Shown: positions 18,359 to 61,380 of the stretch, one piece after another
Position numbering within the stretch: the stretch's first letter is position 1
How the letters are laid out: the number at the start of each line of letters is the position of its first letter
Assembly: GCA_902563095.1 (NCBI GenBank)
Contig: CACEWA010000003.1
Span: forward strand, 1,372 to 65,371
Length of the DNA: 64,000 bases
DNA from: an uncultured Candidatus Poseidoniales archaeon
GTDB taxonomy: Archaea > Thermoplasmatota > Poseidoniia > Poseidoniales > Poseidoniaceae
Direction: 5' to 3'
Made by a program: the position numbers and the translations under genes
The notes under the pieces: generated by a model
Database searches by the model: none
Told to the model about the DNA's origin: nothing
The model's input: only the letters and a program-made list of their open reading frames with translations

Positions 18359-20049
18359 TTAACTAGACCTCCTTCGCTTGAAAATTTATCAAATTCGGAA
18401 ATGATTAGATTGTCAATTATTTTATTACGAATCGTCGAAGATGATGAGAGAGCTAATCTTGCAAAGGTATCATCGTCAATTGACGTGGTTTTTGTCTCAT
18501 ACTGGTGCAGGTCTGTGAGCAGGAAGAGATTCCTCAAGAAGTCCCAATTTCTTTGATTGGGGGCGAAGTTACGCGACAGTGTTTGGGAATCGTTTAACGC
18601 GTCAAAAATCGTATTATTTGCAAAATGTTTCAATTTTTTATTGGAACCTTTGCCCCCGTAGATGATTCTGTCAACTTTGTCTGACTGTTTTTGTGGTTTG
18701 CTGATGAAAAATTTGTTAATCCTATCAGGACTAATTTCAACATCATTTGCCCAGCGTTCTAATTTCATAGCGAAGGTTTCTCCTTCTTCAACATCGTAAT
18801 CTGGCTTACCAAACTTTTCATGCATTCCGATCAATGCTGCGACCGAATCCTCGAGAGATTTGTTTAATTCTACATCTGAGATTAATTCTTCAATATTCTT
18901 AATCAACCATTTTTCTCTACTATTTCGAGGATTTGGTGCCACAAATTGGGATGGTAATACTTCAGATCGAAGAATTTCCAAACTATCACAATGACTAACA
19001 ATAGTTTCTTGATATCTATCATATGGGAAATAATCTCCACAGGTCGTTAAATTACATGATTCAAGAATGGCTTCATCAGGTGATGTACCTACAGTTTCTA
19101 ATTCTATGAAATTTTGATACATTATTCTTCTACAGTCGTTAAAGATATTTTTCTTACCGCCTAAATTAGTATCTGGATAGAACATATTCATTATTGCATG
19201 TAGAAAGTAATCTTTCTGTTGATGTGGTTGAAGTTTTTTTGTTGCACAAAACCAAGATGATGCAATGTTTTGAGCTGATTCGGCACCAAATCCTGGAAGT
19301 TGTTGTGAAATAGAATACGAAAAATTGTAAATCAATGGTAATGTATGATTGTAATGTGAACATAGGTCTCTCAAAGCAGGTAGTATCTCTTTCGCCAAAC
19401 TCTCATTGCCATTGGAATCGAGAATTAAAACACAAAAGTACTCTTCCCATGACTCATTATCTTCCGTAGGAGACAGATGTCCCACATCTGAAATCTCTAG
19501 CAAATCGAATGTGATTGCTTGTCTTGCAAACGCAGGGGCAATCGAAGAATCCTGTAATGCTTCAGAACCAATCATCCCAAGTAGTTGCTTTTCCATAGAA
19601 ATGTTTGCATTAACACCCATAATTTCTTCATATTTCTCAAGACTTTCTGCACCGACAAATAGAACTAAAATCTTCTTAGATGATGAATCTAAATCGTCAG
19701 AATTCTTCCTTAACTTTTCAGAATAATCGAAATGAGATAATACGCTTGAATTATTGAAATGGTTCTCTGTCCAAGGTTTACGATGAACCTTAATCTCTTC
19801 TGGAATAATTGGCCTAGACAATTCTTGTCTTGCCTTAGATATGTCATCTGCACTAGAATCCCGACCACTATTTAGGACGGACCGCACATACGACATGGAA
19901 AAATTCACCTCGCTGTCATTGATTAACATATCTACAGCACATAACATATTTTTACAGAGATTAGAAATATGTAATTTTTTACTGAAATTAATCATAACCC
20001 GAAGGACTTGGTACCACAGGAGTTTGGTTGTCAAACTTCTGGAACTCAT
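18355..20049 (-). CDS. Hypothetical 564-aa protein, translationally coupled to the giant helicase
   Basis: Long ORF with no recognisable motif. Its stop overlaps the downstream start (ATGA). An alternative ATG start at 19995 would reduce the overlap with the upstream gene to 8 nt. Confidence 0.6.
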   Translation of the reverse strand: MSSRSLTTKLLWYQVLRVMINFSKKLHISNLCKNMLCAVDMLINDSEVNFSMSYVRSVLNSGRDSSADDISKARQELSRPIIPEEIKVHRKPWTENHFNNSSVLSHFDYSEKLRKNSDDLDSSSKKILVLFVGAESLEKYEEIMGVNANISMEKQLLGMIGSEALQDSSIAPAFARQAITFDLLEISDVGHLSPTEDNESWEEYFCVLILDSNGNESLAKEILPALRDLCSHYNHTLPLIYNFSYSISQQLPGFGAESAQNIASSWFCATKKLQPHQQKDYFLHAIMNMFYPDTNLGGKKNIFNDCRRIMYQNFIELETVGTSPDEAILESCNLTTCGDYFPYDRYQETIVSHCDSLEILRSEVLPSQFVAPNPRNSREKWLIKNIEELISDVELNKSLEDSVAALIGMHEKFGKPDYDVEEGETFAMKLERWANDVEISPDRINKFFISKPQKQSDKVDRIIYGGKGSNKKLKHFANNTIFDALNDSQTLSRNFAPNQRNWDFLRNLFLLTDLHQYETKTTSIDDDTFARLALSSSSTIRNKIIDNLIISEFDKFSSEGGLVK

Positions 20050-21904: not shown

Positions 21905-21912
21905 TTTATCAC

Positions 21913-24960: not shown

Positions 24961-24970
24961 AATATCACAC

Positions 24971-25471: not shown

Positions 25472-25472
25472 T

Positions 25473-30893: not shown

Positions 30894-30907
30894 TGTAAAA
30901 TTTTACA
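30894..30907. promoter_or_regulatory. Perfect palindrome TGTAAAATTTTACA (TGTAA-N4-TTACA), candidate operator/promoter element
   Basis: Read directly. It lies in the 74-nt gap between the Cas10-like gene stop (30929) and the helicase-DUF1998 start (30854), 39 nt upstream of that ATG. Confidence 0.45.
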
Positions 30908-30928: not shown

Positions 30929-32950
30929 TTAGACAGGGTGTTGGTATAGTACAGAACCGCCGTTCAGTTCTACGAAACCGTCGTCGTCTGCAACTTTATC
31001 ATACTGCTTCTTTGACCCGTCATATTCCTCAATCATCCAACCTTTTGTTGAATCTTCATCGATTTTTTGCTTCCAAAACCGTTTTGCCCTCTTCTCAGCC
31101 GATTTAGACTTTCTCATCATATTCATAATGTTGTCATCAACATCTTTCGTTGACAAACCGGCTCCAAAGCTTAACTCAAAAGGAGCATATTCGGATTCTG
31201 AAAGTTCGCCAAGCTTTTGGGATAAGTCCTTGATTACTCGTCGCAATTTGGGTGTTGGGTTTTTCCCTACAGGAACATAATCTGCTAGGATTATGTCGTC
31301 CCCTGCAGCCACCCAGGCTACGATTTGATCTATCTTCAAATCTTGATTATCTAATGCGTCATTTACTATTGACCACCATTGGCTGTTGAATCTCATAGAC
31401 CTTCTACGCTTAGTATCAATACTGTTGTCAACTTCATGTTCACGAGACCTCGTAAACAAAACGCCAAGTGAGTTCAAATCTAACCTTGCAACGCCATTTA
31501 CCGTTCTTTGGTAATTATTGGTGAACGACTGAGGTAATCCAAACTCCTTAGTGGTCGAATCAATCATTCGTTGTGCTTTACCTATGTTATACAATAGGCG
31601 GTGGAAATTGCAATACGGGTTTGATGAGTCGTTAATTTGATTGTCACGATTGAATGCATTGCCGACCAATTCAACATCTTCCGAACAAATACAACAATCA
31701 GAATTTACTATCTTCTGGAAATCTATTTTCTCGGGGATATCGTCATCAACTACTATTGAAAGCACAGGTAGGTGGCGTATAATCCAATCTTTAATCACTT
31801 TATTTCGTTTTGATTCATCTTTCCATTGGCCAGGACCAATCTCGTAGATTTGGCCGAAATCGGATGCTGACAGTTTGTCTGATATTTTCCGAGATAGAGT
31901 TCTTGTTACCATTTCTAATTCGTTCTGGAAGTATGGTTGATGATTATTCGAGATTAAGAATACTCGATAGAAAGCATCTTCTAACATTCCTTTGGCAGAG
32001 GAATCGCCAAAAAATTCTATTCTTCCTCCTCCATCAATAATTATTGATTCGACACCATATTTCTCAATTATGTTGAACCTAAATCGTGACATCACACTCT
32101 CAAGAATTGCTGATGCACCACGTATAAATGCGGCGTCATCATTCCATTTTTGATACTTGTCAGACCAATTTGTAATCCAACTTTGGATGCTTCTCATCTT
32201 CACACTTACCCTCGTACCATTTATGCAATTCATCAGATCTTCGTTATCTACCCAACCTATACAATATTTCTTTGGCCGATGTTTTGAACGAATGGTTGGG
32301 ATTTTTTTATCGCCATCCCATTCACTCCATTTGTTTCCGATTATGTCTTTGACTTCATCTCTTGGCCAAAATGCAGCAATCCTGCTCTGATCATTTGAAT
32401 GGATGGCTAACAATAATTTGTGTTCTTTGTCAGAAAATGAATTTTCTGGACTTTGTTCTAGACCACGTATAGATAACAATAATATTGACAAAAATCTCCT
32501 ATGAGCCGCCTGAAATTCTTTTCTAGAATTGTCTTCTTCTGCTTTTGATTCTAATTCATTTACCAATCGTAATGCCGATATCTTTTCTTTAGACTGAGTT
32601 AGATTGGTCTTCATATCATGTGCTTTATTCAGCAAAGCACTACGTAAGCTAGTTGCAGAACCATCAGGAGAGTGAATTGAATCTAGATAGAGTGTTAGTC
32701 TCAATGCTTTTGCAGCCTTACTGCTAAGTGGCCAATCTAAAGGGTACCTTCCTACGTCTATCTCTGGATACCCCGCAATGATCTGTACGAGGCGATTATG
32801 TCTGACTGAAGCATCAAGTTTTACCGTTTCCTCGCCAGGCCAGTTCAAAATGAATTCTCTAATCAAATCTAGAGGGTGCTCACCTTCCTTCAATATCTCG
32901 GATGAAGAAAGTGGCGGCGAACCTTCGAACCACGGATTTGGAGCGCCCAT
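30929..32950 (-). CDS. Cas10-like (GGDEF/polymerase-palm) candidate cyclase, no evident HD domain, not CRISPR-associated in this window
   Basis: 673 aa. Motifs in order: ESIIIDGGGRIEFFG (Palm1-like), Cys/His cluster DCCICSED...NPYCNFHRLLYNIGK (position of the Cas10 zinc finger), VARLDLNSLGVLF (DxD/N-x-h-G strand), RRRSMRFNSQWW, WVAAGDDIILADY (GGDD equivalent). The ORF itself is solid. The family call is motif-level only. Confidence 0.5.
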   Translation of the reverse strand: MGAPNPWFEGSPPLSSSEILKEGEHPLDLIREFILNWPGEETVKLDASVRHNRLVQIIAGYPEIDVGRYPLDWPLSSKAAKALRLTLYLDSIHSPDGSATSLRSALLNKAHDMKTNLTQSKEKISALRLVNELESKAEEDNSRKEFQAAHRRFLSILLLSIRGLEQSPENSFSDKEHKLLLAIHSNDQSRIAAFWPRDEVKDIIGNKWSEWDGDKKIPTIRSKHRPKKYCIGWVDNEDLMNCINGTRVSVKMRSIQSWITNWSDKYQKWNDDAAFIRGASAILESVMSRFRFNIIEKYGVESIIIDGGGRIEFFGDSSAKGMLEDAFYRVFLISNNHQPYFQNELEMVTRTLSRKISDKLSASDFGQIYEIGPGQWKDESKRNKVIKDWIIRHLPVLSIVVDDDIPEKIDFQKIVNSDCCICSEDVELVGNAFNRDNQINDSSNPYCNFHRLLYNIGKAQRMIDSTTKEFGLPQSFTNNYQRTVNGVARLDLNSLGVLFTRSREHEVDNSIDTKRRRSMRFNSQWWSIVNDALDNQDLKIDQIVAWVAAGDDIILADYVPVGKNPTPKLRRVIKDLSQKLGELSESEYAPFELSFGAGLSTKDVDDNIMNMMRKSKSAEKRAKRFWKQKIDEDSTKGWMIEEYDGSKKQYDKVADDDGFVELNGGSVLYQHPV

Positions 32951-32975
32951 TGTTGTTTACAATGAGCCCAATGAT

Positions 32976-33368
32976 TTAGTTTTCATCCCTTCCAAGATTA
33001 ATCATATCTAACGAAATGCATGTCACTCCTTCTTGAGTAAACCAAATTGTACCAGAGATTTTCGCGCTTTGCATAAATTGCTTAAGAGAATCTCCTCTCA
33101 TCCAATCTCTAATAGCTGTGCCACCATTAAAACCATGGATAAACCTGACACCGCGCTTCAGATCTGCTTTTGCATCTCTCAATTCTTCTTTGATTCGATT
33201 TTTTGCATTATGTAGAGCCAAATCATGAAGATTGACAGTTAAATATCCTGAATCGTCCCCAACATTTTGCCTAAAGGTACGTGGAGTTGGACGGTTTCGA
33301 TTAGTCCTTCTCTTATGGTGGTTTTTTCCATGTAGGAATCTATCCATCTGAAATTTCCTATTACTCAT
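32976..33368 (-). CDS. Smr (small MutS-related) domain-like protein with a basic N-terminus
   Basis: TVNLHDLALHNAKNRIKEELRDA...RGVRFIHGFNGGTAIRDWM resembles the Smr pattern lDLHGl..eeA...l.......v.iIHGkG.G.L. I chose the ATG at 33368, which forms an ATGA overlap with the kinase stop. The track start is 33407. Confidence 0.5.
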   Translation of the reverse strand: MSNRKFQMDRFLHGKNHHKRRTNRNRPTPRTFRQNVGDDSGYLTVNLHDLALHNAKNRIKEELRDAKADLKRGVRFIHGFNGGTAIRDWMRGDSLKQFMQSAKISGTIWFTQEGVTCISLDMINLGRDEN

Positions 33369-33982
33369 TGGAAAGCCTCCTGAATAATTTCTAATGCCTC
33401 TTGACAAACCTCATCAGGACTTTTGTTACTAGTGTCGATAACTACTGGCTTGAATTTCAGATATGTTTCAAGCACCTTCTCACGCTTAATTTTGCTAGCA
33501 GCTAATTCTGATTCTTCCTTTGTTTCAGCCTCGCCACGCCCATGCAAACGAGTCAAACGATTCTCCTCATCTACTGTGAGTAGTATTAACAAATCGGGCC
33601 TCCTAATCTCGTCGGGATATTGTCCAATCTCAATATCGTGTTCGAATCCTTCATCCATCGCAGCAAATGCTGCAGTACTAGTCCAATATCTATCCATAAT
33701 CACATGCCTATCAGAAATTACATTGGTCACTTGCTCACTTGCTACCAAGTTCGAAAAACGATAATATGCTCTGCGTTGGAGCGGGTTCAATGAATCAAAA
33801 TGAGTTCTTGCAGACCCCTCTTTAATTGAGGGAATATTGATCTCTGGTGGGCAAGAAAGTTGGGCAGCATTAAGGTAAACACTCAACTTCTCAACTAGTG
33901 TAGACTTACCAGTAGCATCAAGACCTTCGATTACGATGAACTTATTCACAAAGCCACCCCCATTGAATTCTCCCAATCCCAT
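33365..33982 (-). CDS. Nucleoside monophosphate kinase (thymidylate kinase-like P-loop)
   Basis: 205 aa. FIVIEGLDATGKSTLVEKL is the dTMP-kinase-type P-loop context. It overlaps the viperin gene 3' end. Confidence 0.8.
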   Translation of the reverse strand: MGLGEFNGGGFVNKFIVIEGLDATGKSTLVEKLSVYLNAAQLSCPPEINIPSIKEGSARTHFDSLNPLQRRAYYRFSNLVASEQVTNVISDRHVIMDRYWTSTAAFAAMDEGFEHDIEIGQYPDEIRRPDLLILLTVDEENRLTRLHGRGEAETKEESELAASKIKREKVLETYLKFKPVVIDTSNKSPDEVCQEALEIIQEAFQ

Positions 33983-34860
33983 TCTCCGCCTCGAGCATTG
34001 AAGGCTTCTAGTGAAAATCCTGGACTTACCTCATTCCAACAATGAGCGAAACCATTTTCTTGAACGGTGCCTTCTGAGTAAAAATAGAATCCATCTTTGT
34101 TTGTATATACTCGGCCAAGTGCATCGATCATCGCATAAGTCCCAAGCATAGCATCATTATTTTCTGGTACTACTTGGATTGAGGTAGAACTAAGCGAGGA
34201 GACATGACGAGAGATATATTCCTCAAAATTATGTTCTGATACCAGAAGAGCTTCTACTCGCCCATCATTTTCTCCATCAATCTTCAGAACTTGGAAAATC
34301 TTCCATCGAGTTGGGTTGATTTGCTTAACTACATCGGTCATATCATCATGCACATTTGCTGAGGTGACCACAGTGTTTAGCTTGATTCCATATCCTAGTT
34401 TGTTAGCCATCTTTGCAATTTCCAAAGCTCGACCCAAATGCCCAGATTCACCATTCTTGAATTCATTAGCATTTGCTCGGCCCATGATTGCATGGATTTG
34501 ATCATTTGAAGCGTCTACAGAAAGCCCCAGCCAGTCAAGGTATGGGCGCATGGATTCGAGCCATTCTTGACTCATCTTAGTACCATTCGAAACGATACTG
34601 GTAGTCATACCTACACGCTTTGACTCCTTAATCCATTCATCTAGGTGAGGATGAAGCATAGGCTCCCCCCCAACGAAATTAATCTTCTCTACTCCTTGAG
34701 ACGCTAGGTCCTGGATGATCTTTAATCCTGCTTCCAAGTCAATCTTTGGCTGCAGACGTTGCTGTTCAAATCCTGCATAACAGAACTTGCAGCGGTAGTT
34801 GCAAAATGCTTCGCAGTGCCAATTTACGGCCTTAGGGATTGTGATGTTGTTTTGTGACAT
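33946..34860 (-). CDS. Prokaryotic viperin homolog (pVip), radical SAM
   Basis: AVNWHCEAFCNYRCKFCYA (viperin-type CNYxCxFC), INFVGGEPMLHP, SIVSNGT, KLNTVV, RWKIFQVLKIDGEND (compare human viperin RWKVFQCLLIEGEN), and a C-terminal Trp-rich tail. I chose the ATG at 34860. The track TTG start is 34887. Confidence 0.85.
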   Translation of the reverse strand: MSQNNITIPKAVNWHCEAFCNYRCKFCYAGFEQQRLQPKIDLEAGLKIIQDLASQGVEKINFVGGEPMLHPHLDEWIKESKRVGMTTSIVSNGTKMSQEWLESMRPYLDWLGLSVDASNDQIHAIMGRANANEFKNGESGHLGRALEIAKMANKLGYGIKLNTVVTSANVHDDMTDVVKQINPTRWKIFQVLKIDGENDGRVEALLVSEHNFEEYISRHVSSLSSTSIQVVPENNDAMLGTYAMIDALGRVYTNKDGFYFYSEGTVQENGFAHCWNEVSPGFSLEAFNARGGEWDWENSMGVAL

Positions 34861-34893
34861 CACTACTATCAGATATTTCAAAGACAAATACCC

Positions 34894-34907
34894 TGTAAAT
34901 TATTACA
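34894..34907. promoter_or_regulatory. Perfect palindrome TGTAAATTATTACA (TGTAA-N4-TTACA) in a divergent promoter region
   Basis: Read directly. It sits between the pVip ATG (34860) and the HNH gene ATG (34945), about 33-38 nt from each. Confidence 0.45.
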
Positions 34908-34944
34908 CTGATTAGGGGATTGTGATAAATCTTTGATTGAGATT

Positions 34945-35898
34945 ATGCTGATCCACGAGCAAGAATACCTAACTATGTTAGAAACTGCATTCAACTTTCT
35001 ATTTCGAAAGGGGAAGCCAGTAAACGGTTCTCCACTAAATCAAGCTAGGCATGAATTTGTTATCACAAACGGAGGATTTTGCCTACATTGTGGCATGAAG
35101 TTGACTCGAAATAATTCTAACACCGAACACATCCATGATCGCGCTCTGGGAGGTATTAACAAGTCTGTAAACAAGGTGATTATGTGTACTTCATGTAACC
35201 TAGCTAGGAACAAGACGATGCAAATTTACCTTGGCTCACCGAGTTACTGGCAAGGTTTCCCAGGGAATTGGGACCGGGTTAAGAAGTATCTTCTTTGGAA
35301 TGCTGTAACAGTAGACAAGGGTCATAACGCGGGAGAGGCTTATCCTGAAGTACACCAAATCTTCGAATCGATTTTACAAAGTAACGGAAATCTGATCAAG
35401 CCGCCAAATCATTGGTTTGGGCGTGGTGATAATTGTGACCTGATTGTTACAAAGCCAAAGCAACGTGGATTTTGGATTCGTATTTTTGACAAAATCTTTG
35501 GCTATGAATCGCCACAAGATACACCCGTAATTACTGTGAATAAAACCAACCTATTGCAGACGGAAGAGAAGAAAGTTAAGGCCGAACGAAAAATTCTGGA
35601 TTTGGATGATGATTTCCGCCATCACATTCTAAACGCATTTAGTAGCATCCAGGGGGAAATTGACCTTGCTACATTTTCAAGTTATTTTCAATTGTATCTC
35701 GTTAGCAAGGATATGCCTAAGCAATCATTGAAGCAATTTGCACGTTCATTCGGAATACCAAAGCGTCGCTCTTTCATCGAAATTATTGAAGACTATTTCC
35801 CAAATGAAATTGAATATCGCCGTGTAGGACAAACCGTGGTTTATATTTCTGCGAAAAATCGTGAGGTTTTTGAATATCTTGCCGATGAAGATGAATAG
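34945..35898 (+). CDS. HNH endonuclease domain protein with an uncharacterised C-terminal domain
   Basis: CLHCGMKLTRNNSNTEHIHDRALGGINKSVNKVIMCTSCNLARN gives the CxxC...H..H...N...CxxCN HNH layout. The ATG at 34945 was chosen. The track TTG start is 34933. Confidence 0.75.
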   Translation: MLIHEQEYLTMLETAFNFLFRKGKPVNGSPLNQARHEFVITNGGFCLHCGMKLTRNNSNTEHIHDRALGGINKSVNKVIMCTSCNLARNKTMQIYLGSPSYWQGFPGNWDRVKKYLLWNAVTVDKGHNAGEAYPEVHQIFESILQSNGNLIKPPNHWFGRGDNCDLIVTKPKQRGFWIRIFDKIFGYESPQDTPVITVNKTNLLQTEEKKVKAERKILDLDDDFRHHILNAFSSIQGEIDLATFSSYFQLYLVSKDMPKQSLKQFARSFGIPKRRSFIEIIEDYFPNEIEYRRVGQTVVYISAKNREVFEYLADEDE

Positions 35899-35912
35899 AA
35901 TGGTGGTCGATA

Positions 35913-36899
35913 ATGAAGCATAGCTACCACTCGATACCGATAACAAAAATTCTTTCAGCAAGTTGTCGTGATTTCTTTTGCTTTCGGGAACTAGAAATAT
36001 TTGACTTCGAAGATGGTTTGAACATCATTGTTGGAAATAATGGGAGCGGAAAGAGTACAGCGGTTAGAATGATTGTAGCAGCACTTTCACCCAATACCTC
36101 ACATGATTGGGATTTCACAACAAGAAATGACAGCACTAAGGGATCCCTAATTGAAATTAGGTTTGTTGTTGAAGAAAAAATATGCTTTTTACGAAGAGTA
36201 ATTGTTCATGGAACTACAACTGATCTTCATTTGTACATAGAAACTGGAACTGAAATGACATTTTTAAGAGACAATGAAGTTGTACGTTTCCTCGCTAAAT
36301 TGAAGCCAATAAATGTAATCAAGACTAACAATTTCGACAAACGAAAGTTCAGGATTACCTTTTCAACTGAACCGCCATCTAAGGACAAAACTTCTACTGA
36401 ATTTTACAAGCTAATAAAAAAGATAATCTCGCAAAAAAAGAACACTCTCGATAAGAACCATGTTTTGTTGATAGAAGAGATCGAATCTAGTATGGATTCC
36501 TTCTACAATGAGCACGTTATTGGAAGTTCCTTGCGATACAAAGATCTGCCAGGCGGATATAGTAGGTTATGGAAGATAATTGGGGATCTCGGAAGACCTA
36601 ATACAGATTTGGTAGCATCTGATTCATCTAAGGTTTACATTATTGACCAAGCAGAACAATATCTGAGTAGAAAAGAATTTCAAATCCTCCTAGATATTCT
36701 TTATTTACTTTCCAAGGAATATGATTTACAATTCATAATCACATCTTCTCGTAAATTAGCAAGCAGTTTGACTAAGCATAATTACATCGATATCAGCCGA
36801 ATAGAGCCCCCAAAACAATATTCTGCTAATCTTTCCCATTCATTGAAACGGTTAAACAAATTATTTACTTATAGAATTACTAAATATCGTTCATGGTGA
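35913..36899 (+). CDS. RecF/SMC-like ABC-type ATPase (AAA_15/21-like)
   Basis: 328 aa. FRELEIFDFEDGLNIIVGNNGSGKST (Walker A), LPGGYSRLWKI (signature-like), KVYIIDQAEQYL (Walker B-like). Confidence 0.75.
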   Translation: MKHSYHSIPITKILSASCRDFFCFRELEIFDFEDGLNIIVGNNGSGKSTAVRMIVAALSPNTSHDWDFTTRNDSTKGSLIEIRFVVEEKICFLRRVIVHGTTTDLHLYIETGTEMTFLRDNEVVRFLAKLKPINVIKTNNFDKRKFRITFSTEPPSKDKTSTEFYKLIKKIISQKKNTLDKNHVLLIEEIESSMDSFYNEHVIGSSLRYKDLPGGYSRLWKIIGDLGRPNTDLVASDSSKVYIIDQAEQYLSRKEFQILLDILYLLSKEYDLQFIITSSRKLASSLTKHNYIDISRIEPPKQYSANLSHSLKRLNKLFTYRITKYRSW

Positions 36900-37738
36900 T
36901 TAATGTGGAAATGGTAAAAGAAATTACTTCCATTTCGCACGATGGGTTTCAAAGCATGTGGTACCCATTCCATTTCGAGAAAGAATTACAAATTAACATA
37001 ATAAATTGTGAATATTTTCGAGAAGGTATCGATTTAATCAAATTAGTACATTGGATGTTTGCAACAAATAATCACAATACTAATACGAGAATCGATAACT
37101 CAAAATCACTTGGAATTTCACAATTAGTTCAATGTAGTGTAGAATTTGTCACTGACAAACATCGATACCTACTGTCCAGAATCTTTCATGACAAGTTTTC
37201 TATCGAAGCTAAATTAGAGGTGTTGGATTCTACAAACGTATACTTTGGAGAAGATGCAATTCGTACTATTCAAAAAATGACAAGACCGATAGTTGTCCCC
37301 AGCGATAGACGAATAATGAGCTCGCTAATTCTTAAGCCACAGGATAACTATTCAAGACAAAGTATGCTAAATTTAGTCGACTTATGGTCTAGATCTCTTG
37401 GCTTTGAAAATATCAAAATTGGATTAACTCCAATTGGACATTGGTCTTATTATCACTCTCGTAAAGAGATAGAGAATAAGCCTCGTCCATCATTATTGAT
37501 GTTGCTTTCAAATCTTGCCCAGGCCACAGTTAGAAAAAGAAAATTTGGTAGGTGTCCTGCCGTCATCTGTTTTGCAGAGATGCACGACCTAAATCAATTA
37601 GAGATAGATTCTGTTATCGAATTGATCTCTACCATTTGCAAAGAAGAAAGACTAAGTTTTGTTCTAGCAACTTCTTCCATTGAAGAAATAGATGTAGAAA
37701 GTGTAAGTAACACCCCTAGGTTTGCAATCTACCGATAA
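36893..37738 (+). CDS. Hypothetical protein, possibly a degenerate paralog of the preceding ABC ATPase (no Walker A)
   Basis: 281 aa, overlapping the upstream gene by 7 nt. The N-terminal KEITSISHDGFQSM...ELQINIINCEYFREGIDL mimics the ABC N-terminus but lacks GxxGxGKS. PAVICFAEMHDL is Walker-B-like. Confidence 0.4.
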   Translation: MVINVEMVKEITSISHDGFQSMWYPFHFEKELQINIINCEYFREGIDLIKLVHWMFATNNHNTNTRIDNSKSLGISQLVQCSVEFVTDKHRYLLSRIFHDKFSIEAKLEVLDSTNVYFGEDAIRTIQKMTRPIVVPSDRRIMSSLILKPQDNYSRQSMLNLVDLWSRSLGFENIKIGLTPIGHWSYYHSRKEIENKPRPSLLMLLSNLAQATVRKRKFGRCPAVICFAEMHDLNQLEIDSVIELISTICKEERLSFVLATSSIEEIDVESVSNTPRFAIYR

Positions 37739-39035
37739 TTTTGTCAAAATTTTCAATTATACGGACTGCATCAGAAGTCAACTCTTTTTTCCACCATGGA
37801 AATCCATTTAATTTTGGGAACAAAAATTTCCTGTGAAGTACATTTCTTCTTTCCAGACCTAATATACTTCCAGCACAATAAGATATGCATAATGCTTCAA
37901 TAGATCCAGCTGCAAAAAACTCATAATTCTGAATTGAGAATGTGTTCTTAAATTTCATTGTCGAATGAATATGTTCCAACAATGATTTTGTCTCATTACC
38001 ATTTCCTTTTGGAATATTAATTTCCATCTTACGCAACCGCTTTAGTAAATTTGCTGATGCTTGAATCAACTGTTGGCTCTCTTCATCTCCGATAAGTACA
38101 TCATGAGAATGATCGACTATTATTCCAACTAGATTGGTAATCGTTTGAAGACTCGGCTCAATAGATAATGATTCTATCTGAGCAATATGATAATTGGTAA
38201 TGGGGTTTATCCAATCGTTCATCTTACGCATTAACTGAATATTTCCAATACTCATTCTTCTAGCAAAAACCCAGAATGGTTCTACATTATTCCAATCCCA
38301 AGATTTGTGAAGATAAGTGCATATCAACGCATATGCCAATCTTTTGTTCGGCCTGCCATTATTATCCATTTCATGTAACATAAATGAGTCAATCAGAGAG
38401 TCGAACCAATCTCGTCTAAATTCCATCGGTGTTGGCCTTTCCACTTCTGATTCAGGCGGCTCTACGTGCTTTTCTACTTTCATTTTTGCAAGTTCATAGT
38501 TTGACTTTAAATCGTCAGTTCCTACGCTATGAAAACGTTCTATGCCATGATATCGTAATCTATTACCAACAAAATAGGGAGGAGACATTTTTCGATATCG
38601 CTCTTCTGTTATTGCACTTCTGTAAAGAGATTTGAGTTTGTACTTATTGGAAAAATCCCTGTAATAACCAATAGATTTTTGTCTTTCTAAACCATCAGAA
38701 ACTTCTTGATCTGTTAATTTCCGACGCTTCAATACCATAGCTAAAGTCTTGTGGCCTACCTGATGGAAAAATTCGGTGTTAGTATAATCGTTTTTATCTA
38801 GATTTTCATCCTGTAATTTCCCATAATCTATTGCGCAGGAAATGCAAATGCCGTAGGGTGCTTCACTAGGATTAAATCCATGATCAATTAAATCATCCTC
38901 AGAAGTTAAATGGATCCCATTAGTTGTGCATTCATCACACCACAATAATTCCTGGTTTTGAAAATCTTCTTCAGTTTCTATACGTGATTGATTGAAGTAC
39001 TCATCATATACATCAGTACTATCCAAAATAATCAC
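37716..39035 (-). CDS. Hypothetical 439-aa protein with an N-terminal zinc-ribbon-like Cys pairs
   Basis: CDEC...CISC near the N-terminus. The GTG start overlaps the upstream stop (GTGA at 39032..39035). No other motif recognised. Confidence 0.5.
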   Translation of the reverse strand: MIILDSTDVYDEYFNQSRIETEEDFQNQELLWCDECTTNGIHLTSEDDLIDHGFNPSEAPYGICISCAIDYGKLQDENLDKNDYTNTEFFHQVGHKTLAMVLKRRKLTDQEVSDGLERQKSIGYYRDFSNKYKLKSLYRSAITEERYRKMSPPYFVGNRLRYHGIERFHSVGTDDLKSNYELAKMKVEKHVEPPESEVERPTPMEFRRDWFDSLIDSFMLHEMDNNGRPNKRLAYALICTYLHKSWDWNNVEPFWVFARRMSIGNIQLMRKMNDWINPITNYHIAQIESLSIEPSLQTITNLVGIIVDHSHDVLIGDEESQQLIQASANLLKRLRKMEINIPKGNGNETKSLLEHIHSTMKFKNTFSIQNYEFFAAGSIEALCISYCAGSILGLERRNVLHRKFLFPKLNGFPWWKKELTSDAVRIIENFDKIIGRLQT

Positions 39036-40690
39036 TCCAAATCTAAGTCATGCGTTGCCCAATTAGCTACAAATTCACCCAATTCTGTTAATACAAATCG
39101 AGATTTCCCAACATCATTTATTTTGGTTATCAATTGATTCGAAATTAAATCTGCAAAACGTGTTTGATTTTGTTCAATACTTATTTGTCTCCCTAACATT
39201 TCGCTTAGTATACTAGCGAACTCCGATATATCACTAAATGTCAGTCCAATATTCTCCTCAGGATTTGCTGATGCAAATAGTAGGTTTTCAATGCTACCAT
39301 CATCATCTTGGCTAAATCTACCCTTTTCGAATTCATTCATTACAATTAAAGAATTTATTTTGCTACTAGCCAATCCTTGCAAAGATTCAAACGCCAAGGA
39401 GGAGGGGATTTCAAGAACATGATCAGTTCTCGAAAATGGCGACCTTGTAACTTGCTCTCCAGTGGCGCCTACTCCCTTGTTCGATTTCATAACATAGCAA
39501 ATTTTGGAACCAGAGGCTAAGGAAAATTTAGAAGCAGAGTTTCTAAGTTTTGCAAAACAAGAAGTCAAATCAATAGACCAAAGATGCTCATCTGTTTTGT
39601 ATTCATATGAAATTATTGATTTGAATAATTCAATCTCAAAATCCAGCATAGATTGATTATCTAACGTCGGATTTACTACAATCAATGGCTCTATTAATTC
39701 GATATCTTCGATTTGAGCTTTCTTGTCCAACAACAATTTGCATTTTTCTAAATCTCTATGCATTCCAGACAACTCTTTTTTTCCAAGTGCCTCTGAAAAA
39801 GTTAATACTCCACTATAGGCTAAATCATCTGAATATCTTTGTAAAACGAAAAGATAACTGTCATGAGGTTCTATTTTTGACATAGTCTGCAGCATATTAA
39901 TTGGCCCGTCATTGAATAATCTGCCAAATGAAATTAGTAATTTTTTGAATACAGGATCACCTGAATCTTGTCGATTTTTCATCCAATATTTCAAAGCAAT
40001 CGGAAAACCCTTGCTTGTTAAAGAGTAGAGTGGGGGCCTGCTTGCATCCCTATTAACAGTGATCATGCCCCTTGATTCGCAGGCTGTAGCAGCAGATTGC
40101 ACACCAGACATCTCTGTAATATTATCTAACTCACAGATTTCTTGGGCTGAGAATTCTGTACCAAAATTTGTACCTGATAATTGAAGAATTGCAGACATTA
40201 TTTTTGGCGCTATTGCTGAATCAATGTATTTTTTATTGTGAAAATATGATTCCAATTCCCCGCCCTCCCAATGATAAAATTTCTCACATTGTATTGAACT
40301 TCCAACTAACCATAGCAAGTAATCGTGTAAAGCTGTGCCTGAGCCAAGCAAGATATCTTTATCCCCGACTATACCGGTTAATGCTTGAAACATTTGTTTA
40401 GAAATGTTCCAGGAAAGGGCCTGTAGTTGATCTGAATTTTCATACCCTTCTGTGGTCAAAGATGGAAGTGAGAATATCGAGGTTGATAATGCCAACTTTT
40501 GTTGAATCTCCTTAGAAGAGTCATTAGGATATACTGAAAATAAGATTAACGAATCGGCATTAATCATTTCAATTCTTTCTAAATCATTAGATCTAAATGT
40601 ATGAGGCGCGATGGCCAATAAAGTTCTCATGTTATTATCTCCTATGAGTTTGTGGTTATTAGAGATGTACTCTACTTTATGAGATACCAT
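39032..40690 (-). CDS. Duplicated CARF-like Rossmann + winged-helix protein (CARF-wHTH-CARF-wHTH candidate)
   Basis: The first half has MRTLLAIAPH..., ILLGSGTALHDYL (G-x-G-T after a strand, as in CARF TGGTK), then a wHTH-like AQEICELDNITEMSGVQSAATACESRGMITVNRDASRPPLYSLTSKG. The second half has LLISFG...YLFVLQRY and a C-terminal wHTH-like LISNQLITKINDVGKSRFVLTELG. Start is uncertain: TTG 40723, ATG 40690 or ATG 40630. Confidence 0.45.
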   Translation of the reverse strand: MVSHKVEYISNNHKLIGDNNMRTLLAIAPHTFRSNDLERIEMINADSLILFSVYPNDSSKEIQQKLALSTSIFSLPSLTTEGYENSDQLQALSWNISKQMFQALTGIVGDKDILLGSGTALHDYLLWLVGSSIQCEKFYHWEGGELESYFHNKKYIDSAIAPKIMSAILQLSGTNFGTEFSAQEICELDNITEMSGVQSAATACESRGMITVNRDASRPPLYSLTSKGFPIALKYWMKNRQDSGDPVFKKLLISFGRLFNDGPINMLQTMSKIEPHDSYLFVLQRYSDDLAYSGVLTFSEALGKKELSGMHRDLEKCKLLLDKKAQIEDIELIEPLIVVNPTLDNQSMLDFEIELFKSIISYEYKTDEHLWSIDLTSCFAKLRNSASKFSLASGSKICYVMKSNKGVGATGEQVTRSPFSRTDHVLEIPSSLAFESLQGLASSKINSLIVMNEFEKGRFSQDDDGSIENLLFASANPEENIGLTFSDISEFASILSEMLGRQISIEQNQTRFADLISNQLITKINDVGKSRFVLTELGEFVANWATHDLDLE

Positions 40691-40704
40691 AAACTCATAA
40701 ATTT

Positions 40705-40718
40705 TGTAAATTATTACA
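40705..40718. promoter_or_regulatory. Perfect palindrome TGTAAATTATTACA (TGTAA-N4-TTACA)
   Basis: Read directly and identical to the 34894 site. It lies between the stop of the 251-aa CARF gene (40730) and the first ATG (40690) of the next gene. It is inside the ORF only if the TTG at 40723 is the real start. Confidence 0.45.
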
Positions 40719-40729
40719 ATCAAACAGGT

Positions 40730-41485
40730 TTAAGCCCAGCCAATAAATGAATCTGGATTGTCTTTCTTCACAGCCTCTAATAAACCTTCAAATTTTTTGA
40801 TTTTTTCTTCTAATAACGAATTTGCTATTGCAGTATTTCCTACCAATTTCAAAATTGTTGTTCCTTCTTCTGTGACAAACCATTTATCTTCATCAATAAA
40901 TAAAATATCCATCTCACAAAATTTCCAAAATACTGGTTCTGGCATAATTTCTGCTAAATCTTTAATCAAACCGCTACCCGCTCTCAAAAATGATATTATT
41001 TCTATAGGTTGGTGCATTACAGATCCTAATCCAAGCAGTTGAGGGAACTCGATGACATCGCGGTTTGGCATAGGTTTGGAACCACTTGGAGGCTGAATTA
41101 CATAAAAAACCCTGGAGCCCAGTAATATACCTGCATAAGTTCCTGCAGCTGCCATGTGCATTGTACCACCCGTGATTCCGATATACCAATCTAAATCAGA
41201 TTCGTGTAGATTATGTTCCTCATGACGTATCGAAATTACCTCATTCAATAATGAAGTTACAGCCGATTGATCAAACAAATTATTGATACTTTTAACTCCA
41301 CCTTGTTTGAAATTATATTGCTTTGACCATTCGTTCAATCGTCTTTTATGCTTAGATGCAAATTTATCAGATGTTACAATATACACTGTTTCTGGAACAT
41401 ATTTTTGGATAGATGTAATTGCATGTTCGACCCTCTCCCCCATGAATAAAATTAAACCATTTTTACGCTCGACAGTTAGAGACAT
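40730..41485 (-). CDS. CARF domain + C-terminal winged-helix protein (Csa3-like regulator candidate)
   Basis: 251 aa. The Rossmann-like N-terminus has GLILFMGE and VYIVTSD. GITGGTMHMAAAG closely matches the CARF TGGTK.M loop of Card1/Can-type sensors. C-terminal KDLAEIM...FCEMDILFIDEDKWFVTEEGTTILKL looks like a wHTH with wing. Confidence 0.5.
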   Translation of the reverse strand: MSLTVERKNGLILFMGERVEHAITSIQKYVPETVYIVTSDKFASKHKRRLNEWSKQYNFKQGGVKSINNLFDQSAVTSLLNEVISIRHEEHNLHESDLDWYIGITGGTMHMAAAGTYAGILLGSRVFYVIQPPSGSKPMPNRDVIEFPQLLGLGSVMHQPIEIISFLRAGSGLIKDLAEIMPEPVFWKFCEMDILFIDEDKWFVTEEGTTILKLVGNTAIANSLLEEKIKKFEGLLEAVKKDNPDSFIGWA

Positions 41486-41528: not shown

Positions 41529-41546
41529 GATGTAAAAATTTACATC
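41529..41546. promoter_or_regulatory. Palindrome GATGTAAAAATTTACATC (contains TGTAA-N4-TTACA with 7-nt arms)
   Basis: Read directly. It lies about 46 nt upstream of the CARF-wHTH gene start (41485), in the divergent intergenic region 41486..41707. Confidence 0.45.
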
Positions 41547-41644: not shown

Positions 41645-41681
41645 CTAGTAATGTAAATTTTGACAACATTACCATTACTAG
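41645..41681. promoter_or_regulatory. Nested inverted repeats CTAGTAATG...CATTACTAG and GTAATGT...ACATTAC, enclosing a one-mismatch TGTAAATTTTGACA site (41652..41665)
   Basis: Read directly. It ends about 27 nt upstream of the ATG at 41708, the start of the + strand operon. Confidence 0.35.
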
Positions 41682-41707
41682 ATTATCAAATAGGTCGAGG
41701 GAACACT

Positions 41708-42025
41708 ATGTCACGCAACACCAGAAAGCTTAGCCACCACAAGAGAGCACACAATGGTAGACATCGCGTACGCAAGGGGGATATTTTCCAACCGCGCCCA
41801 TCTAAAGTATATCGTAGACCTTGTGGCTGCAGTAATCAGGATATAGCAACGAAAAACCGGGTTATGGTTCGTGTAATTTTGAAGACTAGGCCTGAGATGC
41901 GATGGGATGGAAATGAGTGGTCTTTATTCATTCCACAACATTTGTCAAAGAGGTTTGGCCGATGCTTGAAACATTTGACTGAAGAAGACAAAACTAAACT
42001 TCGGGAAAGGGGACTAACTGTATAA
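41708..42025 (+). CDS. Small, highly basic hypothetical protein
   Basis: MSRNTRKLSHHKRAHNGRHRVRKGD... is Arg/Lys/His rich. The ATG at 41708 was chosen over the track TTG at 41660, which overlaps the palindrome. Confidence 0.45.
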   Translation: MSRNTRKLSHHKRAHNGRHRVRKGDIFQPRPSKVYRRPCGCSNQDIATKNRVMVRVILKTRPEMRWDGNEWSLFIPQHLSKRFGRCLKHLTEEDKTKLRERGLTV

Positions 42026-42044: not shown

Positions 42045-42263
42045 ATGAGTAATGGAAAAAGCGCATCAAAATCTAATCCACTAGGAATTAGGAATACCAA
42101 AAAACCGATAGCACGCAGACAAAGAAAAGTCGGCCAATATACAGACCCAAATCTTGCAAAATTTCTCGATAAGTGTCGGAATAGACGGGTTAAAATACTA
42201 CGGAGGAGAAATACCCACGGGTTTACAAATAACACAAAAATCCAAGAGAAGGTGAGGACATGA
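42045..42263 (+). CDS. Small, highly basic hypothetical protein
   Basis: 72 aa, rich in K/R (IRNTKKPIARRQRKVG..., CRNRRVKILRRRNTHG). 4-nt overlap with the next gene. Confidence 0.45.
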   Translation: MSNGKSASKSNPLGIRNTKKPIARRQRKVGQYTDPNLAKFLDKCRNRRVKILRRRNTHGFTNNTKIQEKVRT

Positions 42264-44107: not shown

Positions 44108-44108
44108 T

Positions 44109-45203
44109 ATGAAAAATACGAGTATAAGCAAAGCAAAGAAATTACTGCAACACCAATTGGACATTCTTTGGGATAATCCCGAGAAATCCGGAACAGTACC
44201 GCCATTGATGATTTGGGGGCCGCCTGGAATTGGAAAATCAACATTCATCCGTGAACTATGCAAAGAAAATGGAATAGGTTTCATCGATGTTAGACTAGCT
44301 CAAAGAGAGCCAGTAGATATCCGTGGATTGCCAGTACCCAGAGATGACAAATCAGGAATCGATTGGATTGTTTCATCCGAATGGCCTAGAACAGACGATG
44401 AAGACACCCCGGAAAAAGGTATAATTCTGTTTGATGAGATTACTGCTGCCGATAGTACCTTGCAGGTTGCGGCATATGAATTCATTCTTGATAGAAGGTT
44501 GGGCCAATTATATGAAGTCCCAAACGGGTGGTATATCGTTGCAGCGGGCAATCGAACGAGTGACGCTGCTGTAGCAAGAACAATGTCAAGTGCGCTTGCA
44601 AACAGATTTTGTCACATCGAAGTAGGAGCTAATTCTGCAAGTTGGTTGGATTGGGCACTAAATAATGACATTGACCCTAGAGTCATTGGATTCATTCGAT
44701 ACATGCCTCAACGTATATTTTCTATGGAGGGAAATAAAGAGCGAGGTTGGCCAAGTCCAAGAAGTTGGGAGCGCGTCTCGATGGAGATTGAAACTGCTGA
44801 CAAGCATAATCTAGACAAAGATTTACTGCACTTGCTAATTGAAGGATTAGTTGGTGAAGGAGTTGCTGTCGAGTTCATGGGATTCATTGAGTGGACTGAA
44901 AAGGGTCCTGATGTGGCTAGAATGCTTGCCAAAGAAATCAAAGTAAAGATTCCATCAAGAGCTGACCAAAGATTCGCTATGGTTTCAGCAATTGTCCATC
45001 ATATAAAACAACACGATTCTCCAGACTTATTGGTCGATGGATTCCTTGATATCGCTGCAGCATTACCCAATGATTGGTTACAATTAATCATTCATGACAT
45101 TAGGAAAATTTCTGACCTCCGTGACTTTGCAAACCATTGCATTGTTCATCCAAGATGGGATAATGAAATAGGTCACAGAATTATTGCTGAAAAGGTAATC
45201 TGA
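44109..45203 (+). CDS. MoxR-like AAA+ ATPase (AAA_5-like)
   Basis: 364 aa. LMIWGPPGIGKST (Walker A), GIILFDEITAA (Walker B), and sensor-like AAGNRTSD. Confidence 0.85.
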   Translation: MKNTSISKAKKLLQHQLDILWDNPEKSGTVPPLMIWGPPGIGKSTFIRELCKENGIGFIDVRLAQREPVDIRGLPVPRDDKSGIDWIVSSEWPRTDDEDTPEKGIILFDEITAADSTLQVAAYEFILDRRLGQLYEVPNGWYIVAAGNRTSDAAVARTMSSALANRFCHIEVGANSASWLDWALNNDIDPRVIGFIRYMPQRIFSMEGNKERGWPSPRSWERVSMEIETADKHNLDKDLLHLLIEGLVGEGVAVEFMGFIEWTEKGPDVARMLAKEIKVKIPSRADQRFAMVSAIVHHIKQHDSPDLLVDGFLDIAAALPNDWLQLIIHDIRKISDLRDFANHCIVHPRWDNEIGHRIIAEKVI

Positions 45204-45212
45204 GGTGAGGGA

Positions 45213-46571: not shown

Positions 46572-46585
46572 CGTAATTATTTACA
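46572..46585. promoter_or_regulatory. Near-palindrome CGTAATTATTTACA (one mismatch to TGTAA-N4-TTACA)
   Basis: Read directly, about 43 nt upstream of the 46629 start codon. Confidence 0.25.
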
Positions 46586-61283: not shown

Positions 61284-61380
61284 TCCACTGCTTTCTGTGA
61301 TTCGGTTATGAGAGTACCGCCGTAGGCGGTGTAAACTAAGCCTAGTTTGGCAAAAAAACAAGTTTCCATCGGACTTTTCG

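Follow-up and report, generated by a model that had tools for sequence, protein, structure and literature searches.

What do CARF sensor proteins control when they also end in winged helices and lie among genes of antiviral defence? To our knowledge nearly everything known of CARF sensors concerns accessories of type III CRISPR-Cas systems, and Csa3 is the only transcriptional one which has been characterised. The question is raised by three minus-strand genes of an uncultured Candidatus Poseidoniales archaeon (Poseidoniaceae, Marine Group II). They are found in a stretch of 64,000 nt of contig CACEWA010000003.1 (GCA_902563095.1), which we will call the window. They code for CARF251, a CARF protein of 251 amino acids (aa), for dCARF532, which has two CARF-like domains, and for ZnR439, a zinc-ribbon protein. 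As far as we know, the antiviral biology of the Poseidoniales is little characterised. They are among the most abundant archaea of the surface ocean (PMC10160649).

The answer that we propose, on which our own opinion is evenly balanced, is a CRISPR-independent transcriptional circuit: a Cas10-like protein would signal to CARF proteins which control a defence island, and the locus would not be a stand-alone sensor-toxin operon. The proposal is built on the domain architecture of the proteins, on the enrichment, placement and conservation of a candidate operator, and on the linkage of genes in related loci (numbered L001, L002 and so on).

Two CARF proteins and a zinc-ribbon partner

A previous sequence-only reading of the window had called three minus-strand open reading frames (ORFs), and they are indeed found at 40730–41485 (251 aa), 39032–40723 (563 aa) and 37716–39035 (439 aa). 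The motifs it had quoted are all present: GITGGTMHMAAAG in the 251-aa protein, ILLGSGTALH and LLISFG in the second protein and CxxC...CxxC in the third. The stop codon of the second gene overlaps the GTG start of the third one (GTGA), as it had also noted. The 563-aa frame exists but is over-extended. The closest homologues of the second protein are called with a similar N-terminal extension; the more distant ones begin at Met32 (MRTLL...), and therefore we place the gene at 39032–40630, with 532 aa. The 93 bases of spurious 5' extension overlie a conserved palindromic site.

Of the three-gene operon which had been proposed, the coupling of dCARF532 and ZnR439 stands, but CARF251 is probably not part of the same operon. 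A 99-bp gap ahead of dCARF532 holds a palindrome of its own as well as a TATA-like stretch rich in AT, genes on the opposite strand are inserted in five loci, and CARF251 is missing in two lineages; for these reasons a single operon appears unlikely. When the window proteins were compared with 13 related loci by tblastn, the triad was found again in L002, L012/L013 and L019, and by tblastn order in L004, with a dCARF identity of 30–43%. Thus the triad does recur elsewhere, but not everywhere: in L001, L006 and L009–L011 two opposite-strand genes separate CARF251 from dCARF, and a contig which we call P0005 and L007 have the dCARF-ZnR pair without CARF251. Because of these last two cases, the pair is the invariant core and CARF251 a frequent but separable neighbour. 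ZnR439 lies directly 3' of the dCARF gene every time, in L001, L002, L006, L008–L013, L019 and L007; the order is the same by tblastn in L004, where gene calls are fragmented. No relative of CARF251 or dCARF was found in viral contigs, so the module is not virus-borne.

Profile matches place CARF251 in the CARF superfamily. Its best PADLOC match is CARF3--CARF (E 2e-11); Csx1/Csm6 (7e-10) is another, with about 25 CARF models in all. Its homologues form 69 clusters, and in the family alignment (A5) G103, T105, G106, G107, T108 and M109 are invariant. The loop after beta1 (M-G...H-A) and the loop after beta4 (G-x-T-G-G-T-M, here GITGGTM) are invariant across the family, and the Gly-rich beta4 loop bears out the near-canonical CARF loop that had been recognised in GITGGTMHMAAAG. 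This motif aligns with ITGGRKGMSVAA of PDB entry 7z55, a 'CRISPR-associated protein', in a weak match (E 0.18). The C-terminal third is related by hhalign to the winged helices (wHTH) of the 532-aa family: E 5e-5 (67%) with wHTH2 and 1.6e-4 (51%) with wHTH1, against 0.06–0.6 for reversed-sequence controls. The predicted layout, a CARF followed by a winged helix, is thus Csa3-like as the sequence-only reading had it, with the evidence for the wHTH being transitive through the 532-aa family. Membership in Csa3 by sequence is a different matter: no PADLOC Csa3 model is found among the best 25 of its 27 matches, and the Csa3 structure 2wte is unmatched by phmmer and profile searches of PDB sequences. 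The same kind of PDB searches with CARF251, dCARF, ZnR439 and the Cas10-like protein w673, described below, gave just weak wHTH matches and the weak CARF-loop match just mentioned.

Judged from its sequence relatives, dCARF532 belongs to a small, separate family. When 1.8 billion representatives were searched exhaustively with a profile, the result was 49 relatives, of which about 20 are full length (545–572 aa), and no wider family; just two dCARF loci are found in GTDB genomes. The protein itself has no significant match in Pfam, NCBIfam or PADLOC. The alignment of diverse members (A4) is so degenerate that it precluded scanning of loci.

The N-terminal domain is recognised by its fold. In the AlphaFold2 model the mean pLDDT is 57, but aa 1–125 have values of 72–89 and a beta-alpha, Rossmann-like structure. 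The top 40 Foldseek matches of this domain in the PDB are dominated by Cad1-CARF, Cam1, Sis0811, Can2, Cami1, Csm6, SSO1393 and Csa3. Cad1-CARF is the best one (E 1e-3, TMt 0.56, root mean square deviation 3.2); for the CARF matches in general the probability is about 1.0, with TMt 0.5–0.6, deviations of 3.2–4.3, about 128 columns and E 1e-3 to 2e-2. A comparison with CARF and Csa3 structures had been suggested as a check, and the top matches are nearly all CARF, with 2wte included. Foldseek also gives separate wHTH matches (F-93, RosR, AF1382). At the sequence level, hhalign of this domain with the CARF of CARF251 and with the C-terminal CARF gives E 0.14–0.39, the same as reversed controls; one family member (P0171) has a PADLOC CARF8 match in this domain (E 0.048).

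The C-terminal half of dCARF532 (aa 260–527) is homologous to the whole CARF251 family (hhalign 92%, E 5.9e-7, 195 columns), and its CARF domain alone matches that of CARF251 (90.7%, E 1.3e-6). The aligned pairs, CARF251 being given first, are GITGGTMHMAA/IDLTSCFAKLR, FYVIKP/CYVMKS, MPNRDVIEFP/SPFSRTDHVLEIP and W-x-LT-x-x-G/RF-x-LT-x-x-G. The beta4 loop is degenerate in this half: W-x-I-D-x-T-x-(P/C) is found where CARF251 has G-I-T-G-G-T, without any glycine; D354 and T356 are invariant in 21 members. A PADLOC CARF1--CARF match in member P0141 falls at the homologous place. In these 21 diverse members the best conserved residues lie in the canonical beta1/beta4 ligand loops (G96/G98; R237, D354, T356) and in both wHTH wings.

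The two winged helices of dCARF532 are related to each other (hhalign 92%, E 6.7e-7). wHTH1 has weak AspA matches in the PDB, and EarA/TrmB matches of Pfam are found in family members. wHTH2 is matched in family members by Pfam HVO_A0261_N (2e-7) and HTH_45 and by the C-terminus of PADLOC Csa3, with RosR/HxlR/MarR in the PDB. PadR matches one family member, at a place along the protein that was not mapped. Most library matches of the family fall on wHTH2 and therefore support the wHTH assignment and not the CARF one. For this reason LmuC, CARF3--CARF_TM and Csa3 matches, which map to the C-terminal wHTH in the eight of 21 members examined, were rejected as evidence for CARF; the Rossmann-like parts of these eight gave just the two weak matches of P0141 and P0171. 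A Guanylate_cyc match (E 0.012), which also falls on wHTH2 and is found in one of 21 members, was treated as chance. No nuclease profile matches dCARF532 or its family in Pfam, NCBIfam or PADLOC.

The CARF-wHTH-CARF-wHTH layout, which the sequence-only reading had suggested, is thus upheld by the fold of the N-domain, the relation of the C-terminal half to CARF251 and that of the two winged helices. Its description as a duplicated protein is unproven: the two Rossmann-like domains have no detectable sequence similarity to each other, and dCARF532 may equally well have arisen by internal duplication or by fusion of two different CARF-wHTH units.

ZnR439 has homologues in just four clusters. Beyond the ribbon it is helical, and its conserved residues are mostly aromatic or hydrophobic. 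It has no match in Pfam, NCBIfam, PADLOC or PDB sequences, nor by Foldseek in PDB or BFVD, where its low-confidence model (pLDDT 54) makes the fold searches say little. The suggestion that it could be an effector found no support, as neither family libraries, PDB sequences nor Foldseek gave a nuclease or toxin fold or motif. A HEPN assignment was rejected: the sole Rx4H (R394...H399) is not kept in homologues P0009 and P0010. The homologue in L007 (hhalign 97%) bears several additional CxxC ribbons and follows a dCARF gene with 26% identity. Upstream of that pair, 4377–5531 (−) of L007 codes for a protein of 384 aa whose zinc ribbon is of the TFIIB type (Pfam E 1e-3) and whose helical body resembles TFB. 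A visual likeness of ZnR439 to this zinc ribbon plus cyclin type of protein was discarded (hhalign 0.1%), as was a kinship with the zinc-ribbon protein which heads E1/JAB clusters (L015_427/L018; 0.2%).

A candidate operator and a Cas10-like neighbour

By comparing intergenic regions we have found a 14-bp palindrome, TGTAA-N4-TTACA. The window contains four exact copies against 0.06 expected, a number reached in none of 100 shuffles, and nine copies with at most one mismatch against 2.8 expected. Although 92.6% of the window is coding, the four exact copies are all intergenic, and so are seven of the nine; one of the seven, at 19970, is intergenic only given a downstream start of the 564-aa ORF, deduced from a 501-aa homologue. 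These seven sites lie within a low-GC island (19.9–46.6 kb), 34–75 bp upstream of start codons. Housekeeping genes in the flanks, PGK for example, have no copy with zero or one mismatch at their promoters. Since the host is an archaeon, bacterial promoter logic is not applicable.

Orthologous palindromes are retained in L001, L002, L004, L006, L008–L013 and L019, where CARF251 is just 51–86% identical. The site ahead of dCARF532 has exact orthologues in L001, L006 and L008–L011, and one mismatch in L004 and L012. The one-mismatch site ahead of the small gene w121 is replaced at the same place by exact copies in L002, L012 and L019. Between the divergent viperin and HNH-ATPase operons the site is exact in L004 and has one mismatch in L001, L006, L012 and L019; ahead of the DrmA-like helicase gene an exact orthologue is found in L002. 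The gene of a distant relative, CARF297 (L016/L017, a lineage of higher GC), has TGTCA-N4-TGACA at the same −45 position. In the intergenic region 6695–6815 of L007 an inverted repeat TGACA-N11-TGTCA takes the place of TGTAA-N4-TTACA. We assign the palindrome primarily to CARF251, since its perfect symmetry goes well with a symmetric dimer of wHTH proteins; CARF251 is thus its putative ligand-controlled binder.

No type III system had been seen around the CARF genes. This holds for the CRISPR array, which is absent from the window according to Tandem Repeats Finder, a direct-repeat search and Rfam, and profile libraries recognise no cas gene among the ORFs scanned (10.9–48.9 kb of the window). 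However a Cas10-like protein, w673, is encoded about 8 kb away from the CARF genes. It matches PADLOC Cas10 (E 2.3e-4, aa 491–657) and Pfam Cas10-Cmr2_palm2 (E 0.011, aa 486–624, model positions 3–125 of 133, 16.3 bits vs a cut-off of 27). A homologue with 28% identity, L015_796, matches the same PADLOC model (E 3.4e-3). D491 (in RLDLNSLG), A549-G550-D551-D552 and a CxxC...CxxH motif are invariant in four homologues down to that identity. In AGDD the first Gly of the GGDD-type motif is replaced by Ala. The spacing from D to DD is 60 aa, comparable to that of mCpol (D11/D63-D64; PMC13577387). These features make w673 a probable Cas10-like palm protein, and it may produce a (cyclic) oligonucleotide signal. 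The weight that we give to w673 as a signal source comes from its recurrent linkage to CARF251 homologues: in L014, L015 and L016/L017, which are distant loci, the gene that immediately follows a CARF251 homologue codes for a homologue of w673. The L014 cluster also holds a full-length dCARF homologue (99.7%).

The surroundings are kept as a syntenic block in several Poseidoniales lineages, in the order w615-MoxR-VWA; w121 (divergent); CARF251, dCARF532, ZnR439; w281-AAA23-HNH; pVip-kinase-Smr-like-w673; DrmA-like.

The proposed circuit, known systems and rival explanations

In the circuit that we propose, a homodimer of CARF251 would bind TGTAA-N4-TTACA and control its own gene, w121, dCARF532-ZnR439, and the viperin-kinase-Smr-Cas10-like, HNH-ATPase and DISARM-like helicase operons; the one-mismatch sites would extend this control to two further units (a 213-aa ORF and the 564-aa/2057-aa NTPase operon). 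dCARF532 would be a regulator of this kind too, but as a pseudo-dimer within a single chain, with one asymmetric ligand pocket formed by a Gly-rich and a degenerate CARF loop, and with two non-identical heads for reading DNA. It would be made together with its obligate partner ZnR439, which may be a cofactor that binds nucleic acids or the transcription machinery, and not an enzyme. Most likely w673, whose D...GDD palm site is intact, would make the ligand, a (cyclic) oligonucleotide. As w673 is itself encoded in one of the operons with a candidate operator, the circuit would have feedback. It is possible, and we put it forward with caution, that in Marine Group II archaea a stand-alone Cas10-like enzyme and two types of CARF-wHTH factors (homodimer, and single chain with a zinc-ribbon partner) form a master switch, which through one operator induces or represses together the viperin, the Septu-like pair, the DISARM-like cluster and a giant NTPase.

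Several elements of this picture have known counterparts. Csa3 is a CARF-HTH regulator that binds cyclic tetra-adenylate (cA4) (PMC9704534, PMC8699464). The proteins described here share with Csa3/Csa3a of Sulfolobales an N-terminal CARF and a C-terminal winged helix, a dimeric logic with a palindromic DNA target and the putative regulation of defence genes; 2wte is among the fold matches of dCARF532, and the PADLOC Csa3 model matches the C-terminal wHTH of dCARF members. They differ by the lack of a Csa3 sequence match in CARF251, by the absence of an array and of type I-A or type III CRISPR-Cas in the ORFs scanned, by the host, a euryarchaeal plankton lineage, and by the putative targets, which are viperin, Septu-like and DISARM-like operons and not cas genes.

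Can1 of Thermus has two CARF domains per monomer, a pseudo-dimer which binds one ligand asymmetrically (PMC9704534), and a 'fusion of two CARF domains' was already noted in 2014 (PMC4012209). dCARF532 also has two CARF domains per chain. However in Can1 they alternate with nuclease-like and PD-(D/E)xK domains, whereas in dCARF532 each CARF is followed by a wHTH and there is no nuclease. A CARF-wHTH-CARF-wHTH protein is not described in the literature that we searched, a scope which did not include the Makarova 2020 classification of CARF proteins.

As a candidate signal source w673 may be compared with two systems. Its likeness to type III Cas10 consists in sub-threshold palm-2 matches, a D...(G/A)GDD motif for metal binding and, ahead of the palm, a zinc finger of the form CxxC...CxxH. 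It differs by having no HD domain match, AGDD instead of GGDD, no CRISPR array and no Csm/Cmr subunits among the neighbours scanned (Pfam/PADLOC), which are pVip, a kinase, a Smr-like protein and the DrmA-like helicase. The adjacency of the w673 and CARF251 families in L014, L015 and L016/L017 recalls the mCpol-CARF systems (Burroughs 2015) and Panoptes type II, in which mCpol, a Cas10-related palm enzyme outside CRISPR, is paired with a CARF-TM protein through cyclic tri-adenylate (cA3) (PMC13577387). Nevertheless the proteins of the w673 family are much larger: they have 620–800 aa, and besides a zinc finger they contain a conserved domain at the N-terminus and perhaps a pair of palm-like regions, vs a minimal palm of about 110 aa in mCpol; their CARF partners end in a DNA-binding wHTH and not in a membrane output. 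We know of mCpol-CARF (Panoptes) signalling only in bacteria, with membrane effectors. CARF signalling itself is known; what is new is the family with the fused CARF-wHTH-CARF-wHTH layout, the zinc-ribbon protein that accompanies it, the operator spread over the island and the linkage of CARF and Cas10-like genes in Marine Group II.

Three other explanations deserve to be weighed against the circuit. It is unlikely that we are dealing with ordinary regulators, inherited vertically, which respond to a metabolite or have lost their ligand control, so that w673 and the defence genes would be neighbours by synteny only. A precedent is HFX_2341/Crr (DUF6293) of Haloferax, a Csa3a-like global repressor, vertically inherited and also present in CRISPR-less haloarchaea (PMC11434293): a CARF and DNA-binding regulator which exists without a type III cyclase, and whose Pfam N-domain (HFX_2341_N) weakly matches CARF251 (E 0.01, sub-threshold with 16.7 vs 30 bits). 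Yet that protein, of 308 aa, represses transport genes, and no synthase partner of it is known; in the window we find a Cas10-like partner and an operator restricted to the island, with no copies at PGK-type housekeeping promoters. The synteny of the block across several Poseidoniales lineages fits ordinary regulators, as does the fact that distant CARF251 homologues cluster with ThiF/E1, JAB and CDC48 and not with classical defence genes, but the adjacency of CARF251 and Cas10-like genes recurs where the remaining neighbourhood differs, and in L001-type genomes this locus also contains the insertion of a Can2-like CARF-nuclease. The state of the CARF loops cuts both ways, the second one of dCARF532 being degenerate and the Gly-rich ones invariant.

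The model of the sequence-only reading, a self-contained signal-activated (abortive-infection) system with CARF251, dCARF532 or both as sensors of a cyclic nucleotide and with ZnR439 as its toxic effector, we consider clearly unlikely. ZnR439 is translationally coupled to dCARF532 and constantly adjacent to it, but it has no enzymatic or pore-forming signature (Pfam, NCBIfam, PADLOC; Foldseek with PDB and BFVD). Most of its invariant residues are zinc ligands or have aromatic or hydrophobic side chains, and its only Rx4H is not conserved. The genes do lie in a defence island, with pVip, the DISARM-like cluster, GmrSD and the Septu-like HNH/ATPase pair, and dCARF532 and ZnR439 evolve faster than their neighbours (37–74% identity vs 79–89% for pVip in the same loci). 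Nevertheless the wHTH domains of both CARF proteins are already an output, and a toxin would leave unexplained the common operator in front of other defence operons. Finally, it appears highly improbable that CARF251, dCARF532 or both act as ring nucleases or as sinks for the signal, in the manner of Crn1/Sis0811, and degrade or sequester the messenger. Sis0811 (7pq6, 7pq2) and SSO1393 (3qyf), which also combine a CARF with a wHTH-like domain, appear in the Foldseek list of dCARF532, where non-nuclease CARFs score equally well or better. Conserved palindromes placed at promoters call for a DNA-binding dimer. In Crn1-type enzymes the catalytic Ser follows beta1; in CARF251 there is no serine at this place, where it reads M-G-x-R-x-E-H-A.

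The circuit itself has weak points. The first CARF of dCARF532 is known by its fold alone (E 1e-3 to 2e-2), without support from sequence, in a model which is poor overall (pLDDT 57). The readings of w673 and CARF251 are drawn from sequence. All Cas10 matches of the w673 family are below curated thresholds, two other homologues have none at E<=0.1, and profile searches of PDB sequences with w673 give no Cas10. The binder of the palindrome could be another factor. For ZnR439, which has no recognisable fold, any role is guesswork. In the P0005 contig neither a viperin nor a w673-like gene was called within 10 kb, and the neighbours in L007 gave no Cas10 or CARF251 match where tested. Since the 30-kb block is syntenic, the conserved gene order and operator positions partly reflect shared ancestry and are not independent evidence.

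If the proposed circuit is true, it would represent nucleotide second-messenger signalling with a purely transcriptional and island-wide output, and it would provide a tangible example, open to testing, of how several defence operons are coordinated at the level of transcription. dCARF532 would be an asymmetric counterpart of Csa3, as Can1 is of Can2, and it would be useful for learning how CARF pockets read asymmetric ligands and how non-palindromic DNA is read. The 14-bp site renders the hypothesis directly testable.

Features of the window and of related loci

Table 1. Positions in the window of the genes, domains and candidate operator sites discussed in the text
Feature	Position	Strand	Basis or remark
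CARF251, 251-aa CARF and C-terminal winged-helix protein, Csa3-like architecture	40730..41485	-	PADLOC CARF models, family alignment
CARF beta4-loop motif GITGGTMHMAAAG, aa 103–115 of CARF251	41141..41179	-	Invariant or near-invariant in 41 family members
CARF251 C-terminal wHTH-like region, aa ~151–220	40826..41035	-	hhalign to dCARF532-family wHTHs
dCARF532, CARF-wHTH-CARF-wHTH, 532 aa, start = Met32 of 563-aa ORF	39032..40630	-	Homologue starts, fold and profile evidence
dCARF532 N-terminal CARF-fold domain, aa 1–125, conserved loop LGRGxxLHD	40256..40630	-	pLDDT 72–89; Foldseek
dCARF532 wHTH1, aa ~140–218, wing Y202-x-L-T-x-x-G	39977..40213	-	hhalign wHTH1 vs wHTH2
dCARF532 C-terminal CARF-like domain and conserved linker, aa 226–420	39371..39955	-	hhalign to CARF251 family
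dCARF532 wHTH2, aa ~462–528, R-F-x-L-T-x-x-G-x-F-V-A	39047..39247	-	Library matches of family members
ZnR439, zinc-ribbon and helical protein, 439 aa, start overlaps dCARF532 stop (GTGA)	37716..39035	-	ORF call
ZnR439 zinc ribbon C33-x2-C36...C64-x2-C67	38835..38939	-	Four Cys invariant in five homologues
w673, Cas10-like, candidate signal synthase, 673 aa, last gene of viperin-kinase-Smr-like operon	30929..32950	-	Cas10 model matches
w673 palm-2-like region, aa 486–624, VARLDLNSLG and AAGDDIILA motifs	31079..31495	-	PADLOC/Pfam matches
pVip (radical SAM viperin), thymidylate-kinase-like and small Smr-like genes	32976..34887	-	PADLOC pVip E 2e-74; Pfam Radical_SAM, Thymidylate_kin; Smr E 0.003
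HNH, AAA_23 ATPase and 281-aa operon, Septu-like, divergent from pVip, operator in common	34933..37738	+	Pfam HNH_5, AAA_23
w121, small very basic protein, divergent from CARF251	41660..42025	+	Probable start Met17 at 41708
Candidate operator TGTAAAAATTTACA, exact, 46 bp upstream of CARF251 ATG	41531..41544		Conserved in L001, L002, L006, L008–L013, L019
Candidate operator TGTAAATTATTACA, exact, 75 bp upstream of dCARF532 ATG	40705..40718		Abuts TATA-like AAATTTATG
Candidate operator TGTAAATTTTGACA, one mismatch, 43 bp upstream of probable w121 start (Met17)	41652..41665		
Candidate operator TGTAAATTATTACA, exact, middle of divergent viperin / HNH-ATPase intergenic region	34894..34907		
Candidate operator TGTAAAATTTTACA, exact, 40 bp upstream of DrmA-like (DISARM-like) helicase gene	30894..30907		
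Candidate operator CGTAATTATTTACA, one mismatch, 44 bp upstream of 213-aa ORF (46629–47270)	46572..46585		
Candidate operator TGTAATTTTTTACT, one mismatch, between GmrSD-like gene and 564-aa/2057-aa NTPase operon	19970..19983		

The viperin, kinase, Smr-like and w673 genes form a four-gene operon (30929–34887, −). A Cas10-like palm enzyme at the end of a viperin operon is unusual, and it raises the question whether w673 uses 3'-deoxy-3',4'-didehydro (ddh) nucleotides. In the divergent Septu-like operon the PADLOC matches are weak: PtuB for the HNH protein, and PtuA/GajA/LmuB-type for the N-terminus of the AAA_23/SMC-type ATPase. The 281-aa protein looks like a paralogue of this ATPase without Walker A, and the trio is kept in all related loci. 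w121 adjoins CARF251 in L001, L002, L006 and L008–L013 (tblastn), is always divergent and has its own operator copy; it has no family matches in Pfam or PADLOC.

A DISARM-like or restriction cluster occupies 12185–30854 (−). It contains a helicase of 1793 aa whose C-terminal domain is MZB (DUF1998-type), a small PLD nuclease and a DEAD/Helicase_C protein, together with a GmrSD_N protein, the 564-aa protein and a 2057-aa multi-P-loop NTPase with weak mad8/MkoA matches. The GC content of this cluster is 0.35–0.41, vs 0.44–0.47 in the flanks. On the other side, at 42260–46523 (+), the CARF genes have three conserved neighbours: a 615-aa protein, a MoxR-type AAA+ ATPase and a DUF2201 metallopeptidase-VWA protein. 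In L001 this trio gains a DSPc-type phosphatase, and in the P0005 contig a phosphatase and a 340-aa gene replace CARF251 and w121.

The genes inserted between CARF251 and dCARF in L001 (8033–9957, −) code for a 238-aa CARF protein, which matches the N-terminal part of PADLOC CARF4--CARF_PDDEXK (1.4e-4), and a 403-aa protein with CARF_PDDEXK matches (8.8e-6) and a PD-(D/E)xK nuclease region at 305–371; from these matches they look like a split effector of the Can2/Card1 type. A second strong CARF protein adjoins the CARF251 homologue in L005. In L005, L014, L015, L016 and L018 the distant CARF251 homologues cluster with ThiF (E1-like), JAB/JAMM, CDC48 and several proteins of about 100–130 aa; the L018 cluster is headed by a protein with a TFIIB-type zinc ribbon. 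These clusters may be a ubiquitin-like conjugation module tied to the pair of CARF and Cas10-like genes.

In the L004 'pilon' contig the radical SAM, HNH, MoxR and dCARF genes are split over several frames, probably due to indel errors of the assembly and not to pseudogenisation. The window also contains a tandem repeat of the hexamer TCATCG, or of an 18-mer, at 58162–58203, within a 1113-aa ORF (58095–61436). The encoded stretch is presumably acidic and rich in Asp, and the repeat has nothing to do with the CARF locus.

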